Assembly: GCF_946463545.1 (NCBI RefSeq)
Contig: NZ_OX296583.1
Location: forward strand, 757,035 to 781,034
DNA from: Methanothermococcus thermolithotrophicus DSM 2095
GTDB lineage: Archaea > AGJL01 > Methanococci > Methanococcales > Methanococcaceae
Direction of reading: 5' to 3'
DNA: 24,000 nucleotides
In this document: piece by piece, positions 8,426-22,773 of the stretch
Layout: every line of letters starts with the position of its first letter
Position numbering within the stretch: position 1 is the first letter of the stretch
Made by a program: the position numbers and the translations under genes
Notes under the pieces: model-generated
Told to the model about the DNA's origin: nothing
Databases searched by the model: none
The model's input: the letters and a program-made list of their open reading frames with translations, nothing else

Positions 8426-8670
8426 GGCATGAGGGCTATAGCCCGCCTTCTGTAATTTCGGCGACATTCAGCTAAGCGCTAATGCTTGCACCCGTGCAGA
8501 ATGGGGCCGTTTCACCGATTCCTTAAAACTCCTCAATTTTCGGATATCATCGTCATCTGTTTTAAGGCCGTGTCGTTTCTATGCCCCATTCAATCCCTCT
8601 CGGGATTGTTGCACATAATGGGTGGGCGGAGCTTCCTCCCAATTGGATAGTCACCAGCCCTCTTGCCTGT
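8424..8670 (-). ncRNA. rnpB: RNase P RNA (compact, Methanococcales type-M-like)
   Basis: The minus strand contains GGGAGGAAGCUCCGCCCACCC (CR-I-like) and ACAGAAGGCGGGCUAUAGCCC (CR-V ACAGAA..GGC). A P1 helix forms between GGCAAGAGGGC (8657-8667) and GCCCUCAUGCC (8426-8436). The segment is GC-rich relative to its flanks and is ~245 nt long. Confidence 0.75.
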
Positions 8671-8691: not shown

Positions 8692-8716
8692 CCATATAAC
8701 ACTCGAAAATTCGAAA
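8692..8716 (-). promoter_or_regulatory. RNase P RNA promoter: TATA (TTATAT, 8694-8699) preceded by the 14-nt box TTTCGAATTTTCGA
   Basis: The TATA centre is ~28 nt upstream of the inferred RNase P RNA 5' end. The box at 8703-8716 is identical to the one at 21431-21444. Confidence 0.55.
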
Positions 8717-16371: not shown

Positions 16372-16617
16372 TAAGGACTCTCATTATACAACGTACTCAT
16401 AGTTTCAACAAAATAACAGCCCACTACAAAATTAGCTAAGGAATAACTCTAGAATCCACCAACAACAACTTTTTTAATTAATTTTTATTTTCATTAAAAT
16501 TTAAACATTTAACAACATTCCCGCTCCTGCCCATATCACATATAAAATACATCATATAGATAATGTAACAGACATAATTATAATACCAACAACATATAAT
16601 AATAGTTCGTGATACCA

Positions 16618-18636
16618 ATGAACGAAGGTAAAATTGAGGAACTAAAACACTTAATAACCAACTATTTAAGAAATTTTCATAGTGACGACATTATTTCAGA
16701 AAATGAGAAGGTAGTTGTAGATTTAAAGAATATTTACGACTATGGGATTATAGAATTTGTAGAATTAATACATGAAAGACCAAAATTAGGATTGGAAATA
16801 TTAAAAGAATGTTACGACAATGCATACTATACCCTAAAAAACGAAACACCAAACTGTGAAATTTCCATAAAAAACTTGCCTACAATATTCAACAAATCAG
16901 GGAAAAACAAGACAATTACTATAGAAAATATAAAAAGCAATACTTTAGGAAAACTAGTTGAATTTGAAGGCGTAGTGGTTACAGCAACAAAAATAAAATC
17001 TGCATTAAAAAAAGGAGTCTATATATGCGGTTCTTGTGGGGAAAAAACAGTTATTGAAGTTGAAAATCCATTTGAGGCTTCATTTGATCCATCCTGTAAA
17101 AAATGTGGCGGTGGAAATTTAGTACTAATTGAAGAGGAATCGGAGTTCATAGACTTTCAAGAAATAAAAGTCCAACAGCCATTAGATTTGATGGACGATC
17201 CCGAAGAACCTCCAAAGTACATAACTGTTTTTCTAACAAACTCTCCAGGAATATTCTGTGGACGTGTAAAAATAATGGGGATACCTATTAAAAACCAGAA
17301 AAATAGAAAAGTACCAATTTATGACATATATATCAAAGGACTGTATTGTGAAGTCATAGAAAACAAAATAGAAACCAGATTAAGTGAAGAAGACATTGAA
17401 AACATAGAAAAAGTAGCTAAAAATCCAAAAATTATAGATATACTGTCAGATCGACTCATTCCTGAAATAAAAGGATATAATATGGTTAAAAAGGCTATAT
17501 TCTTACAACAAATAAAAGGTGTTGAAAAAGGGAATAAAAGAGCAGACAGTCACATACTTCTAATTACCGACCCGGGAATTGGAAAGACTGTCATGTTAAG
17601 AAGGATTGCAGAATTACCCGGAAATCTCTATGGTTCTGTGACGACAGCTTCAGGCGTTGGATTAACTGCAGCAGTTATAAGAGAAAAAACAGAAATTGGA
17701 GATGACACCTGGGTCATAAAGCCAGGTTTACTTGTAAAGGCAAATAAAGGTACTGCATGTATTGACGAGCTCACTGTGAATAGAGACCTTCAAAGTTTTG
17801 TATTGGAGGCAATGGAAAGTCAAACAATACACATAAGTAAAGGAGGAATAAACGCCAAATTACCATCCAAATGTGCAATACTTGCGGCATGCAACCCACG
17901 ATGGGGAAGATTTGACCCCAATGTATCCGTTGCAGAGCAAATAAATATCCCTGCGCCTATGTTGAGTAGATTTGACTTAATATTTCCAATTAGGGATGAA
18001 GCTGATAGATCAAAAGATAAAGATATTGCAGAGCACATAATAAACGTCCATAGAGCTCTATTAAACAATGAAATTGATCAGATAGGTTTAGAATACATTG
18101 AACTAGACGGCGTTAAAATTGATAAAGATTTTATAATAAAATATATATCCTACGCAAGACAGAAAGAACCTATAATATCAAAAGATGCTGAAAAGGTTTT
18201 AATAGACTACTACTTGAGTATGAGGAAAGGTGCTGTTCAAATAACTGCAAGACAGTTAGAAGCAGCAATAAGGCTCGCCGAAGCTCATGCAAAGGCCAAA
18301 TTAAAGGACGTTGTTGATGAAGAAGATGCCAGAGAAGCTATAACTATAATCACAGAATCATTAAAAGAAATTGCCTATGACCCTGAAACTGGGCAATTTG
18401 ACATTGATAAAATAGCAGGTATCTCCAAAAAAGACAGAAATAAAATGACTCATATTTATGATATTATTAAAAAACTTGCAGAAAAGAATGAAGATGGTCT
18501 AGTAATATATGAAGATATTGTTGAAGAGGCCAAATCAGAAAACATAGATGAAGAAGAAGTGGAAAATATACTTAAAAAAATGGTCAAATATGGAGATATT
18601 GACGAGCCTAAAACTGGAAAATATAGGCTCATTTAA
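16618..18636 (+). CDS. mcm: MCM replicative helicase paralog (divergent)
   Basis: The zinc finger is CGSCGEK...CKKCGG. The AAA+ core includes ITDPGIGKTVML, ACIDELTVN, IHISKGGINAKLPSKCAILAACNP, SRFDLIF and ITARQLEAAIRLAEAHAKA. The tracked ORF starts at a GTG (16609), and the first ATG is at 16618. Confidence 0.9.
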   Translation: MNEGKIEELKHLITNYLRNFHSDDIISENEKVVVDLKNIYDYGIIEFVELIHERPKLGLEILKECYDNAYYTLKNETPNCEISIKNLPTIFNKSGKNKTITIENIKSNTLGKLVEFEGVVVTATKIKSALKKGVYICGSCGEKTVIEVENPFEASFDPSCKKCGGGNLVLIEEESEFIDFQEIKVQQPLDLMDDPEEPPKYITVFLTNSPGIFCGRVKIMGIPIKNQKNRKVPIYDIYIKGLYCEVIENKIETRLSEEDIENIEKVAKNPKIIDILSDRLIPEIKGYNMVKKAIFLQQIKGVEKGNKRADSHILLITDPGIGKTVMLRRIAELPGNLYGSVTTASGVGLTAAVIREKTEIGDDTWVIKPGLLVKANKGTACIDELTVNRDLQSFVLEAMESQTIHISKGGINAKLPSKCAILAACNPRWGRFDPNVSVAEQINIPAPMLSRFDLIFPIRDEADRSKDKDIAEHIINVHRALLNNEIDQIGLEYIELDGVKIDKDFIIKYISYARQKEPIISKDAEKVLIDYYLSMRKGAVQITARQLEAAIRLAEAHAKAKLKDVVDEEDAREAITIITESLKEIAYDPETGQFDIDKIAGISKKDRNKMTHIYDIIKKLAEKNEDGLVIYEDIVEEAKSENIDEEEVENILKKMVKYGDIDEPKTGKYRLI

Positions 18637-18736: not shown

Positions 18737-19843
18737 ATGAACATGATATACAATGTGGCAGAAGATTTTTTAACTGGAGATATATGGATACTACCTACGG
18801 ACAGGGATAACCTACTAGAACTAAATGAAAATGGATGTATTAAACTAGTCAGGAATATACCTGTTTTAAGGATTTTAGCCACACCATCTATAAAAAAAAC
18901 AGTTAGTAGGTTAGCATATACAATAAAGGATAAAATGACAATGTTTAAAGGAGAAACATCAGGATGGATGAAAAATTTAATTAACTACCTCCATAAAACA
19001 TACTTCGACAAAAAGAGCAACAATTACTATAAGGCAAAAAAGGCATGGTATAGATTTATAGGAGATTTATTTAAAAATATTAGAGATTGGGAGTTTAACA
19101 AAGTAAGAGGTAAAATAATCGCACTTTTGAGAATTTTAAACCCAGTACTTGTATTCGATATCCACAATACAACAAAGTGGAATTATACTACAAGTTTTGT
19201 TAAATTCATCAAAGAATTGAAAAAAAACAATATAACCGTCGTACTAAGGTGTCCGTTCGAATCTATGGACCATGTTAAAGAACTGTTTAAAGAATCCAGA
19301 ATAAACAATATTGCAACAATTAAATACTACGGAAAAACACTCGGTCATACCATATCAGCAAAAGTTGCAAAATATTTAATCGAAATTTCGAATGGTAATT
19401 TGGATGTTATTAGATTGATACTGAAACATTCAAAAAGGGAGCTGAAATCATTGCGGGAGTTAAGGATACATTGGTTAAAAATAATACCTGAGATTGTTCC
19501 TAAAAAATATAGAAAAATTATGAAATTAGCCTGTAAACTGAAAAAATTCAATATAAAAAATATAGGCAATTATTTAAACTTCAGTTTATCCACAACCTAC
19601 AACTATATGAATGAATTGGTTGAACTGGGCCTGTTAACTAAGAGGAAAGTTAGAAAAAACGTACTATTTAAAATAAGAATTGATAAGGATTCCTTGTTGA
19701 ACGTAATAGGGAAATATAACCCCAACAACTTGCATGAGATTTTTTTAATAAATAGCAAATGTAGTAAATATGTCCAAAAAAATACGTTTTTAAAGAAAAA
19801 AGGGTTTTCTACTTTTCGAACTAAGTGTGATTATATAGAATAA
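18737..19843 (+). CDS. Hypothetical protein: apparent degenerate AAA+ (Orc1/Cdc6- or archaeal-ATPase-like) core plus C-terminal winged helix
   Basis: 368 aa. A P-loop-like but non-canonical ATPSIKKT sits at residues ~47-54, and a Walker-B-like PVLVFDIHN at ~136-144. ISNGNLDVIRLILKHS resembles a sensor-2/lid helix. The C-terminal wH reads NIKNIGNYLNFSLSTTYNYMNELVELGLLTKRKVRKNVLFKI. Confidence 0.55.
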   Translation: MNMIYNVAEDFLTGDIWILPTDRDNLLELNENGCIKLVRNIPVLRILATPSIKKTVSRLAYTIKDKMTMFKGETSGWMKNLINYLHKTYFDKKSNNYYKAKKAWYRFIGDLFKNIRDWEFNKVRGKIIALLRILNPVLVFDIHNTTKWNYTTSFVKFIKELKKNNITVVLRCPFESMDHVKELFKESRINNIATIKYYGKTLGHTISAKVAKYLIEISNGNLDVIRLILKHSKRELKSLRELRIHWLKIIPEIVPKKYRKIMKLACKLKKFNIKNIGNYLNFSLSTTYNYMNELVELGLLTKRKVRKNVLFKIRIDKDSLLNVIGKYNPNNLHEIFLINSKCSKYVQKNTFLKKKGFSTFRTKCDYIE

Positions 19844-19969
19844 TACAAAATATACAATACATAATATCAAATATGTTGAGTGTAATGTTGTGACACAGCC
19901 TTATTTTTCGAATACTACTTATGATTCATATTATAAGAAAATTATTTTGCTATTTTTTAACTTATACGA

Positions 19970-20019
19970 TTTCGAGTTTTCGAGTGTAGTGTATGTATAG
20001 AATTTTGGAAGGTATCCCC
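19970..20019 (+). repeat. Left arm of an imperfect ~50-bp inverted repeat (starts with the box TTTCGAGTTTTCGA)
   Basis: It aligns without gaps to the reverse complement of 20291-20341 at about 39 of 50 positions (hand count). Shared blocks are TTTCGRGTTTTCGA, TGTATGTATA, TTTTG.AA and GTATCC. Confidence 0.8.
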
Positions 20020-20290
20020 ATTTAGGTTTTACAAAAATTATTCCAAACGTATTCTATATGTTATTACTATTTTGATCTATAAATGTATAATATGTATAAA
20101 TAATAAACAATATGTTATAATATACACTATAGTGTGATTATACTACTAAAAACGATGTAAACAATCAATACTAATCTAGAGAAACATGTTTAATTATCAT
20201 TAAACATATTTAACAAGATGATAACTACTATGTGGTAAATACTGGATAAATTACTCTCTGTTATAATCAAAAATGCATTTTTTATTTATT

Positions 20291-20341
20291 GGTGGATACA
20301 TTTCAAAACCATATACATACATCACGTTCGAAAACCCGAAA
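20291..20341 (-). repeat. Right arm of the inverted repeat (reverse complement starts TTTCGGGTTTTCGA)
   Basis: See the left arm. The arm ends 6 nt from the stop codon of the wHTH gene at 20347. Confidence 0.8.
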
Positions 20342-20346
20342 TACTA

Positions 20347-20865
20347 TTATTTTGTAGATTGGTAATACTTTTTCAGATAGTTTATGTGCTTACATTCTTG
20401 AGATTGGCAGGATATACACCACCAAGTATCGTTTTTAGTTTTAAATACTCTCGAAACTTCTTCTCCCCTGTAGTCGTAGAATTTAAAAGTAATTCCTCCA
20501 AAATTATCGGCGAATTTTCTTATTTCAAATCCCATATTCTTTACTGGATAATACTTTGTTTCAAATTTCTTTTTCGGAAGACTTTCGAAAACACTCGAAA
20601 AACTAACGTCGAATATTTCGGGACATATTCTCTTTAATATTGATATTCCTTTCACCGTTAAGGAATATAAGACTTTATGTCTGTTTCTTTCTCTTTTAGC
20701 CACATTTAAAGCTACGCACATCCTTAAAAACTGTGAAGGTAGCCCTTTTGAAATTCGAAGGTTTTCGGATATCTGCTGGGGATAAGTTGTGCCATTAGTT
20801 AACACATAGTGTAAAATTAGTTTTCTAAATGGTGTTGAGATTATTCCTTTTACTAAGTTATCCAT
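20347..20865 (-). CDS. Small winged-HTH protein with a C-terminal Cys/His zinc knuckle (SWIM-like)
   Basis: The N-terminal wHTH reads FRKLILHYVLTNGTTYPQQISENLRISKGLPSQFLRMCVALNVAKRERNRHKVLYSLTVKG. The C-terminus WWCISCQSQECKHINYL has the spacing C-x2-C-x4-C-x-H. The tracked start (20868) is a TTG, while the ATG at 20865 has a GGTGA SD. Confidence 0.6.
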   Translation of the reverse strand: MDNLVKGIISTPFRKLILHYVLTNGTTYPQQISENLRISKGLPSQFLRMCVALNVAKRERNRHKVLYSLTVKGISILKRICPEIFDVSFSSVFESLPKKKFETKYYPVKNMGFEIRKFADNFGGITFKFYDYRGEEVSRVFKTKNDTWWCISCQSQECKHINYLKKYYQSTK

Positions 20866-21169
20866 CAAATCACCTTTTTTTAGTTATTGGGTGCTCTTTG
20901 ACTAAGATCTAATGAATATCTAATTTTTTAAACGAATATTTATCTTTAGGGTTTTTGATTCATATAACGTTTTTCGTCCAATACTAATTTACTAATAATT
21001 TTGATAGTATATATGTCTTTTTATTTGATAGTTTTTTGTTTAAAGCCAATAATTTGGATATGTTGAAAAATGTAGGGGGTATATCCGTTGTTTTAATTTT
21101 CTTATATGATACTTGATTAACTTTCAATTTTTAATATTTTATTCAAAGTTATTTTACGTTTTATGGTTA

Positions 21170-21181
21170 TATTCACAATAT
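21170..21181 (+). repeat. Partial third copy (TATTCACAATAT) of the 16-nt direct repeat
   Basis: This is a 12-nt exact match to the core of the repeats at 21322 and 21352. Confidence 0.5.
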
Positions 21182-21321
21182 ATTTTTTAGTATATAAGTA
21201 AAAAATACAATTAAAGAAAAATTTATTAAATAAGAATAATTATATATACTTTTTCTTTTTTATTAAAATAAATTTTAATTGAATTTTGAGAGTCATTTGG
21301 CTTTGTATTGTTTATATAATT

Positions 21322-21367
21322 TTTTATTCACAATATTTTTGCTATTTTATGTTTTATTCACAATATT
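21322..21367 (+). repeat. Two perfect 16-nt direct repeats, TTTTATTCACAATATT, with 30-bp phasing
   Basis: The copies lie at 21322-21337 and 21352-21367, within the 680-bp non-coding spacer upstream of the Orc1/Cdc6-like gene. Confidence 0.8.
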
Positions 21368-21430
21368 ATTGCATAGTAAATAATTTATATAGTTATATCT
21401 ATAAATATTTTTAGATGTTAAATTTTAGAT

Positions 21431-21458
21431 TTTCGAATTTTCGAAAAGTATAAAAAAG
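21431..21458 (+). promoter_or_regulatory. Box TTTCGAATTTTCGA followed by the TATA-like GTATAAAAAAG: probable promoter of the Orc1/Cdc6-like gene
   Basis: The 14-mer and its close spacing to a TATA (about 3-4 nt) match the inferred RNase P RNA promoter. It lies ~90-115 nt upstream of the ATG at 21547. Confidence 0.5.
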
Positions 21459-21489
21459 TTGATAATGCAATTATCTAATTATTATTTTA

Positions 21490-21510
21490 AAATTTTCAAA
21501 TTGAAAATTT
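21490..21510. promoter_or_regulatory. Perfect 21-bp palindrome AAATTTTCAA-A-TTGAAAATTT
   Basis: The arms are 10 bp each and the centre is at 21500. It sits between the putative TATA and the RBS (GGTGG at 21538-21542) of the Orc1/Cdc6-like gene. Confidence 0.55.
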
Positions 21511-21546: not shown

Positions 21547-22773
21547 ATGTTGGACCCTATTGAATTTATATACAATTCATCATCTATAACAAGAAAAGCG
21601 ATGAATAGATTGAAACTAAAAACAAATCCTTTTTCGGAAAAACCTATTAGGGGAAATACTAAGTTTTTCGTAGGTAGAACTTCAGAGCTGAAAGAAATTG
21701 CCGACATATTGGGTGCAGCTCAGTATGGAAGTATAGCTAACGCTGCCATTGTAGGTACAAAAGGTATTGGTAAGAGCTCTATACTCAACATATTGTACTA
21801 TGCTGCAAAAAGAAAGGGTTATTGGGTAGTGGAGCTCGAGGCCTCGCAAGTTACTCCCAGGCAATTTTTAATCCAGTTAATGTATGGTATTATTAAGGAT
21901 AATTTATTTTCAATAGATGGTACTTTATCAACGGATTATATGGAACATTCCCAAAGAATTATTGAAATATATAGGCGACTGAACAACTATAGCGATAAAA
22001 CACCGGTTCACTATCCAAGGGAAAAAATAGAAAGGGATTTGGATTATCTATTGACAAATGTGAGGGAAGAAGGAAAGTTATGTATAATAACAATAGATGA
22101 GGCAGACCAATTTGCTAAAAAAAGCTGTCTAAGCCTTTTACAGTTCTTTCATTCATTCCTCTATGAAGATGGAATTTTAGTATTTTTTGCAGGTTCTCCT
22201 ACATTAATGGAGGGTTTAACAAAAGTATCTCCTGCAATGAAGGATAGAATACCTAAGGTAATAAACATGCCTCCACTCCTAAAAGAAGAAGCTTATGATT
22301 TAATTAAAAGACGATTGGAAGATGCTCACACAGTTAAAGCAGGAGATTATGAGCCATTTACCGATGCTGCAATTGATAAAATAGTTGAAGAGTGCGATGG
22401 AATCCCAAGAAAGATAATAATGACTTGTTCTGAGGCAATATCTATAGCTATGAAAAAAGGAATGGATAAAATAGATGAAGACATAGTTAGAATGGCAATG
22501 AAAAAACTAGGTATTAGTGTAGGTCATCAAATATTAAATCATTTAACACCTGCCCAATCTAAAATAGTTCAAGCACTTGCGGATTTGGGCGGCAGTTCAA
22601 CAGTAACTGAGTTAGCTAGAATTTTAAACAACTCTCCTGGAACTATTGGAACTCATTTATCGGATATTTATGAAATGGGGTATGTATATAAAGAAAGAGT
22701 GGGTAATAATGTATATTACTCATTATCAAAGGAACTAACAGAGGTTCTAATCAATGAAGATGAAGAAAATTAA
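21547..22773 (+). CDS. Divergent Orc1/Cdc6-like AAA+ ATPase with C-terminal winged helix
   Basis: The N-terminal motif is PFSEKPI....FVGRTSELKEIADIL. Walker A is GTKGIGKSS, Walker B is CIITIDEADQF, and the sensor-2-like motif is CDGIPRKII. The C-terminal wH reads SKIVQALADLGGSSTVTELARILNNSPGTIGTHLSDIYEMGYVYKERVGNNVYYSL. A GGTGG SD is present. Confidence 0.75.
   Translation: MLDPIEFIYNSSSITRKAMNRLKLKTNPFSEKPIRGNTKFFVGRTSELKEIADILGAAQYGSIANAAIVGTKGIGKSSILNILYYAAKRKGYWVVELEASQVTPRQFLIQLMYGIIKDNLFSIDGTLSTDYMEHSQRIIEIYRRLNNYSDKTPVHYPREKIERDLDYLLTNVREEGKLCIITIDEADQFAKKSCLSLLQFFHSFLYEDGILVFFAGSPTLMEGLTKVSPAMKDRIPKVINMPPLLKEEAYDLIKRRLEDAHTVKAGDYEPFTDAAIDKIVEECDGIPRKIIMTCSEAISIAMKKGMDKIDEDIVRMAMKKLGISVGHQILNHLTPAQSKIVQALADLGGSSTVTELARILNNSPGTIGTHLSDIYEMGYVYKERVGNNVYYSLSKELTEVLINEDEEN

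Follow-up and report, generated by a model that had tools for sequence, protein, structure and literature searches.

Where does chromosome replication begin in the Methanococcales, and which DNA sites would the initiator recognise there? According to reviews these archaea have no Orc1/Cdc6 or only very divergent ones, and no origin has been mapped experimentally (PMC3984812, PMC5333045). A stretch of 24,000 nucleotides from Methanothermococcus thermolithotrophicus DSM 2095 (RefSeq assembly GCF_946463545.1, contig NZ_OX296583.1, forward-strand positions 757,035 to 781,034), which we call the window and from whose first letter all positions are counted, contains a 14-nt box, TCGAAAAYYCGAAA, in which two units, each centred on TCGA, stand in tandem 8 bp apart. 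Most of its copies lie in a small gene island between an open reading frame (ORF) with an Orc fold, ORF368, and the gene of the divergent initiator Mc-pRIP. We hold with moderate confidence that the box represents a family of initiator-binding sites, resembling the archaeal origin recognition box (ORB), of a predicted origin, and that one copy doubles as an operator on the Mc-pRIP promoter.

The box is rare and its copies are clustered. Throughout the genome scanned (1,706,496 bp, 32.9% GC, Methanococcales) the pattern has four matches, every one inside the window, at 8703 (+), 19970 (−), 20328 (+) and 21431 (−). These are the four 14-mers that had been picked out in an earlier inspection of the letters alone (the sequence-only reading), whose coordinates and strands were all correct. 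Shuffled sequence leads one to expect 0.02 matches in the window. Three of the four copies are packed into 1.5 kb, with ORF368 on one side and Mc-pRIP on the other. The claimed crowding of single units at 19.4–24 kb was also borne out: in 4.6-kb sliding windows this interval is the genome-wide maximum for CGAAAAYY (9 versus a mean of 0.67), and TCGAAAA (11) and CGAAAA (19) likewise peak there, while TCGAAA reaches its own genome-wide sliding-window maximum at 19.7–21.6 kb (12 versus a mean of 0.72). CpG is indeed scarce, as the same reading had stated, with an observed/expected ratio of 0.59.

Two of the copies are parts of a longer element. B and C (Table 1) are 33-bp inverted repeats of the form TATACATACAT-N5-TCGAAAAYYCGAAA, with the boxes at their outer ends, and the order-wide consensus of the long repeat is caTATACATAcATgcaacTCGAAAActCGAAA. 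When the genome was searched with a profile of the 33 bp, only C (E 4e-7) and B (E 9e-6) were found; the copy beside the RNase P RNA and the copy at 21431 (box D) align to it through the box part alone. The distance from B to C, start to start, is 358 bp here and 353–375 bp in 18 genomes, mostly 356–364 bp, and every base of the TATACATACAT-N5-box element is held across three families. In the same 18 genomes the interval between the repeats has 16–26% GC and is otherwise poorly conserved; alignment of the orthologous intervals gave no conserved transcript-like sequence between B and C, and Rfam returned no RNA family in the island. We regard this core as a candidate unwinding region. In most genera the core also contains a second pair of inverted sequences, ATTATCACAAA/TTTGTGATAAT, each member lying some 75 nt inward of a long repeat. 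The TCACAA core of this inner pair resembles the ATTCACAAT repeats of the other spacer of the island, and its copies are degenerate in the present genome.

Beyond B lies a third box, A. It is degenerate in this genome, and many relatives have an exact third box 163–168 bp beyond B; the degenerate unit that the sequence-only reading had listed at 19813 stands in this place. Repeat C ends 6 nt past the stop codon of ORF173. Relative to the Mc-pRIP ATG, the positions conserved in relatives are about −1750 (−) for A, about −1585 (−) for B, about −1225 (+) for C and −58 to −125 for D. On the outer side of B, C and A there is TATA-like AT-rich sequence, with imperfect modules at B and C.

Table 1. 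Box copies, repeats and genes discussed in the text, in window positions
Feature	Position	Strand	Description
Long inverted repeat B	19970–20002	−	Box TCGAAAACTCGAAA (19970–19983) plus ATACATACAC module facing the AT-rich core
Long inverted repeat C	20309–20341	+	TATACATACAT-CACGT-TCGAAAACCCGAAA, box at 20328–20341
AT-rich core	20003–20308		ORF-free; 16–27% GC in 100-nt windows
Box A	19805–19820	−	Degenerate third box, TTCGAAAAGTAGAAAA; 165 nt from B; overlaps the 3′ end of ORF368
Box D	21431–21444	−	Followed by AAAG, then TATAAAAAAG (21449–21458)
Intragenic box variant	20583–20604	+	TTTCGAAAACACTCGAAAAACT inside ORF173; TCGA units 10 nt apart; codons F90-S91...F94-E95
Distal box	8703–8716	+	Between two minus-strand RNA genes: in their reading direction, 22 nt after 5S rRNA and 37 nt ahead of RNase P RNA
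Three TATTCACAATAT repeats	21167–21366	+	At 21170, 21325 and 21355; published 'Methanococcaceae ORB' type
MCM helicase gene	16609–18636	+	Immediately upstream of ORF368; Pfam MCM, MCM_OB, MCM_lid
ORF368	18737–19843	+	Orc1/Cdc6-fold protein with winged helix; no Pfam hit
ORF173	20347–20868	−	ArsR-like winged-helix protein with C-terminal CxxCx4CxH; between two AT-rich spacers
Mc-pRIP	21547–22773	+	Divergent Orc1/Cdc6-like initiator, MJ0774 family; AAA+ domain plus ArsR-type winged helix-turn-helix (wHTH)

The same set of sites recurs across the order. In 40 Methanococcales genomes the box pattern gives 113 matches, versus 6 for the reversed control. The first 27 genomes account for 94 matches, and 56 of these are no more than 2.5 kb from ORF173, in a stretch amounting to some 0.3% of a genome. 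The inverted pair, its spacing of about 360 bp, the third copy and the promoter-proximal copy are present, variant forms included, in all 23 of the cassette-bearing genomes examined. Conservation in orthologous regions, another check named by the sequence-only reading, extends across the order to the sequence, position, orientation and spacing of the box. Genomes of the M. maripaludis/vannielii type and of the M. aeolicus type retain variant B/C pairs. A seeming loss of box B in M. maripaludis-type genomes was an effect of a limit of one mismatch, since a B with two mismatches is present there together with a ATGTATATAT module; as variant B persists in these genomes, the idea that B and C degenerate together with ORF173 was dropped as well. 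A search of 185,579 species genomes gave inverted long-form pairs in Methanococcales only. The long-form pattern had no match in viral contigs, and Mc-pRIP and the B–C region had none in plasmids. An origin from a mobile element (a miniature inverted-repeat element or the terminal inverted repeats of a transposon) is unsupported on these grounds, there being a single 33-bp pair per genome at a syntenic site.

Box and genes are also absent together. Eight of the 40 genomes, of 0.9–1.5 Mb, have no box (G001, G007, G013 and G015, also G036–G039). The four of these that were tested have neither Mc-pRIP, ORF368, ORF173 nor Cdc6_C and carry a single full-length MCM; in them the box was not found with one mismatch allowed either. 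Judged by gene content, they would represent a lineage with no recognisable replication initiator. Since the four cassette-less genomes probably form one clade, we count the joint absence of box and cassette as one event rather than four.

The island coincides with a switch in strand composition. Plotted along the genome, amino/keto (MK) disparity takes the form of a clean tent with its maximum at 776,905, corresponding to 19,871 in the window and about 100 bp from box B, and its minimum at 1,556,625, which is 780 kb from the maximum. Ranked by MK slope contrast, the locus is second among 1,507 positions; the GC skew of the genome is noisy. The MK peak agrees with the published Z-curve placement of oriC, in-silico work having put the Methanococcales oriC beside Mc-pRIP (PMC4009838, PMC3531139), and such predicted origins have never been tested by experiment (PMC5333045, PMC3984812). 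Our island, initiator gene and Z-curve logic are the same as those of the earlier predictions of an oriC adjacent to Mc-pRIP (Zhang & Zhang 2004; DoriC 5.0, PMC3531139; PMC4009838; Ori-Finder 2, PMC4164010; Ori-Finder-Arch preprint 2026), whereas the elements differ, since the ATTCA direct repeats of these predictions sit in the 680-bp spacer between ORF173 and Mc-pRIP and the long TCGA forms in the 500-bp spacer between ORF368 and ORF173. What Ori-Finder 2 lists as the 'Methanococcaceae ORB motif' reads TT[TA][GT]ATTCA[TC][GA]AT[AT]T[AT]T[AT] (PMC4164010); in our window this expression matches at 21167 and 21322, separate from the box.

Three of the six genome-wide copies of the TATTCACAATAT repeat fall in the spacer between ORF173 and Mc-pRIP, and the strict inverted geometry surrounds the ORF368–ORF173 spacer, not the one with the ATTCA repeats. 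The coordinates of Zhang and Zhang from 2004 reportedly list as oriC an intergenic region other than the ORF368–ORF173 spacer. The sequence-only reading did not recognise the box as a described Methanococcales motif, and the published Methanococcaceae ORB is in fact a different sequence. No description of the box and no binding data were found in the searchable literature, the motif table of the 2026 Ori-Finder-Arch preprint aside, where a prior listing is possible. The TCGA box thus seems to form a second, apparently undescribed class of element at the computer-predicted origin.

A rearrangement in two Methanocaldococcus genomes (G024 and G026) bears on which parts of the island belong together. 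There the Mc-pRIP gene lies 190–446 kb away, and ORF368, both spacers and ORF173 stay together, suggesting that Mc-pRIP can act in trans and that the cis elements travel with ORF368 and ORF173. We ruled out that the ATTCA repeats were lost in these genomes; the whole spacer remains with the cassette, and for this reason the rearrangement does not discriminate between the two spacers.

Box D connects the family to a promoter. Its proximal unit, CGAAAAG, runs straight into TATAAAAAAG 90 nt ahead of the Mc-pRIP ATG, and would double as the transcription factor B recognition element (BRE) of the Mc-pRIP promoter. Methanococcaceae keep the arrangement TTTCGrnTTTTCGAAAnnTATAAAAAAG at 58–125 nt before the Mc-pRIP start, and in Methanocaldococcus the D position holds one or two units followed by a TATA element, for example a single TTTCGAAA and TATATAA. 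The claim that the box stands 3–4 nt upstream of a TATA element is true at 21431, with AAAG as the gap, and at 8703, with GTG. The suggestion built on it, that the box is an upstream promoter element, stands for the 21431 copy, which in most genera adjoins the BRE/TATA of the Mc-pRIP promoter and extends into it, and is plausible for the copy beside the RNase P RNA. The predicted 5′ leader of Mc-pRIP, between TATA box and start codon, also contains a 21-bp palindrome (21490–21510).

One further copy is embedded in coding sequence. The run of units that had been noticed in the wHTH gene, ORF173, can be kept as a family member: 17 genomes of four genus-level groups all have TTT-TCG and TTC-GAA there, although TCG accounts for just 4.4% of Ser codons and the codons around them vary. 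In G026 the embedded nucleotide motif survives although the encoded residues differ. The palindrome at 19380–19391, used as a control, shows no comparable nucleotide conservation. On this evidence the run is a real embedded site, held by selection at the nucleotide level. The palindrome itself had also been counted in the family; it is coding and common to only two other genomes, and we exclude it.

How closely does this set resemble the ORB and mini-ORB elements of Pyrococcus, Sulfolobus and Methanothermobacter? The likeness lies in repeats placed in intergenic DNA beside an initiator gene, in the existence of long and short forms, in inverted copies that flank an AT-rich unwinding region in the order ORB(−), duplex unwinding element, ORB(+), in copies overlapping the initiator promoter and in conservation among related species. 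Clustering beside a gene of the orc1/cdc6 type was found for three of the four copies, between ORF368 and Mc-pRIP, and likewise in 23 genomes; inverted copies bracketing an AT-rich element were found as B(−) and C(+), 358 bp apart, around DNA of 16–27% GC. For the pair at 19970 and 20328, which the sequence-only reading had compared to ORBs by its orientation, this context (33-bp inverted repeats, an AT-rich core, two Orc-fold genes, fixed geometry and the MK peak) supports the comparison. In sequence, however, the box is unrelated to the TCCA-N3-GAAA dyad with its G-string (Ori-Finder 2 Table 1, PMC4164010), being a tandem TCGA-centred doublet, 8 bp apart, with a TATACATACAT module, and the presumed binders carry an ArsR-type wHTH rather than the Cdc6_C winged helix. 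As the box matches neither the canonical ORB nor the published Methanococcaceae motif, we class it as working like an ORB and not as a member of either. A loose TTCC/GGGG stretch occurs further inside the long repeat in some genera only. The embedded site also has a counterpart in Thermococcales, where intragenic ORB/mini-ORB elements lie in the PolD DP1 gene beside oriC (PMC2643942); in both cases an origin-type site stands in coding sequence of the island (20583–20604 in ORF173 here), and host gene and motif differ, the embedded units of ORF173 being 10 nt apart and not 8.

The proposed mechanism has three steps. One of the three locally encoded winged-helix proteins (Mc-pRIP, ORF368 or ORF173) would bind the sites; binding would place the initiator complex to either side of the unwinding region, so that MCM could be loaded at this spot; and binding at site D would feed back on Mc-pRIP transcription. 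As a possible binder Mc-pRIP is slightly favoured, on the circumstantial ground that its wHTH is as invariant as the box. Readings of the box as promoter element and as ORB are compatible, since in archaea initiator sites often overlap the promoter of the initiator itself. The flanking MCM, the Orc-fold ORF368 and Mc-pRIP are genes of replication type, and we count this in favour of an origin.

Several observations weigh against an origin function. Each box is followed by TATA-like sequence, which leaves room for a transcriptional role, and the copy between 5S and RNase P RNA has no obvious replication role. The box did not match the published Methanococcaceae ORB motif, lacking its ATTCA core, nor, by eye, the canonical ORB consensus of TCCA-N3-GAAA dyad plus G-string. 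The lowest GC content (11–16%) is found in the other spacer, at 21.15–21.45 kb, beside the ATTCA repeats, so that the unwinding site may lie there and the box be accessory. Skew, an indirect surrogate for the site of initiation, locates the switch no more finely than about ±10 kb. In G024 it is ambiguous, with a positive MK slope of its own between the cassette (105 kb) and the inverted Mc-pRIP (297 kb); this slope fits an inversion of about 190 kb, one end of which would lie just upstream of Mc-pRIP, and gives no position for the origin. Origins can, moreover, be dispensable in some archaea (Haloferax, Thermococcus).

A stronger form of the origin reading would make the inverted TCGA-box repeats, and not the ATTCA repeats, the true helicase-loading sites, bound with a constant spacing of about 360 bp by an ORC-like hetero-complex peculiar to this lineage and made up of the active initiator Mc-pRIP, its catalytically degenerate Orc-fold paralog ORF368 and the wHTH-zinc protein ORF173. 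We think this unlikely; if true, the origin would be one intergenic region away from the database-listed one. The ORB-like reading in its simpler form has to be set against explanations that dispense with replication. The boxes could be operators of a winged-helix regulator encoded at the locus, ORF173 or ORF368, with no direct role in origin recognition, acting on the Mc-pRIP promoter, on ORF173, possibly on transcripts entering the AT-rich core and, in some genera, on the RNase P RNA. Such a regulator would account for the overlap of D with the BRE/TATA of Mc-pRIP and for the RNase P copy, which stands 3 nt from a TATA-like element and about 30 nt before the 5′ end of the RNA, and which is conserved in five genomes. 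It also fits the annotation and fold of ORF173 and ORF368 as ArsR/MarR-like wHTH proteins, and the box set staying with these two genes in the two species whose Mc-pRIP moved 190–446 kb. Yet operators would not explain why long forms of 33 bp stand inverted at a constant distance of about 360 bp, why the core between them is AT-rich and non-coding, or why the set falls on the skew switch. The fold of ORF368 is that of Orc1/Cdc6 and not of a simple repressor, and ORF173 has diverged to 23–40% identity in Methanococcus while the boxes persist; we consider this explanation doubtful. It is still less probable that the boxes are core-promoter sequence, either duplicated BREs or bidirectional promoters, with B and C promoting transcripts that enter or leave the spacer. 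In its favour, CGAAA makes a good BRE in Euryarchaeota, the proximal unit of D (CGAAAAG) directly precedes TATAAAAAAG, Methanocaldococcus has at D a single TTTCGAAA plus TATATAA, and B, C and A have TATA-like AT-rich sequence on their outer sides. However, CGAAAA occurs 928 times in the genome and the doublet only four times; sites of TBP and TFB tolerate drift, yet TATACATACAT-N5-box is fully held across three families; an embedded coding copy and a fixed B–C distance are not features of promoters; and B and C enclose neither conserved transcript-like sequence nor an Rfam hit.

Two further explanations we regard as remote. The cluster could be a methylation-dependent mark of the origin, read through its hemimethylation state as an analogue of the GATC clusters of E. 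coli oriC, for each unit is centred on the palindrome TCGA and the island is the genome-wide maximum of TCGAAA. However, the A-runs, the YY positions and the ATACATACAT module are conserved along with TCGA, and TCGA, with 2,874 genomic copies, is no rarer than CpG depletion predicts, which makes such a mark very improbable. A TCGA methyltransferase was not found either, though no search aimed at one was made. That the pattern is a chance or codon-driven coincidence in AT-rich DNA has next to no probability left. It holds for many matches outside the origin in coding sequence of Methanocaldococcus and M. maripaludis, which are orthologous copies of one coincidence, and the palindrome at 19380 is such a case; but with 0.02 matches expected in the window, 6 matches for the reversed control versus 113, and non-coding copies conserved in place and orientation, coincidence is effectively refuted for the non-coding copies. 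The sites of EarA (TACATA), NrpR and Ptr2, taken as leads only, are not known to match the box either.

Matches away from the island are of three kinds: the orthologous coding coincidences, a conserved copy between 5S rRNA and RNase P RNA, and a few isolated ones. An rRNA operon, the 5S rRNA and the RNase P RNA, all directed leftward, occupy 8.4–13.6 kb, and the distal box stands among them. Read on the minus strand, the box leads into GTG and TTATATGG (8699–8692), about 30 nt before the Rfam 5′ end of the RNase P RNA at 8666, and the box copy beside this TATA-like element is not BRE-like. The arrangement of 5S, box and RNase P is kept in five genomes, this one and four labelled g2, with the box 20–73 nt from the 3′ end of the 5S rRNA and 34–111 nt from the 5′ end of the RNase P RNA. 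This copy may serve transcription of the RNase P RNA or termination of the rRNA operon, or may belong to the initiator as an outlier, 11 kb away from the origin. The isolated matches include the last spacer of two CRISPR arrays in G006. There the spacer at the trailer end contains TGCAC-TCGAAAACTCGAAA, which is like the origin repeat of the same genome and not identical to it beyond the box.

Of the candidate binders, ORF368 has a structure model with a predicted local distance difference test score (pLDDT) of 79.6, whose best fold match in the PDB is Cdc6/Orc1 of S. solfataricus on origin DNA (2qby_A, E 3e-5); the gene is syntenic in 26 of 31 genomes and always adjoins boxes A and B. ORF173 is likewise syntenic in 26 of 31; its model is of low confidence (pLDDT 58), with weak, generic fold matches to wHTH proteins of the ArsR/SmtB type. 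In Methanococcus species it drops to 23–40% identity, and the boxes persist there. Mc-pRIP is 72–83% identical across the order, and Pfam AAA_16/HTH_5 and NCBIfam TIGR02928 score below threshold on it. Its wHTH is near-invariant across the order, the helices of ORF173 and ORF368 being less conserved.

Away from these genes, the arms of hairpins at 23.8 kb had been taken for further family members. They belong to an array of about ten different perfect 7–10-bp hairpins with loops of 3–5 nt (23806 to about 24070), downstream of the FolE2/MptA gene. Multi-hairpin arrays of this kind, with 8–12 hairpins per 300 bp, occur at at least 13 loci in the genome, and the one at 23.8 kb is missing at the orthologous position in 13 relatives; they are a species-specific repeat class, unrelated to the box.

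The initiation of replication in the Methanococcales is a recognised gap, and the present analysis reduces a vague origin region to a few exact conserved sites: two 33-bp inverted repeats, an outer third copy, a copy embedded in a gene and a copy on the promoter of the initiator. The motif used by origin-prediction servers for Methanococcaceae would then be one of two classes of element in the island. With three locally encoded candidate binders named, the box offers a concrete candidate docking site for the unusual initiator proteins of this order, and as Methanococcus maripaludis is genetically tractable, both sites and binders are directly testable there.

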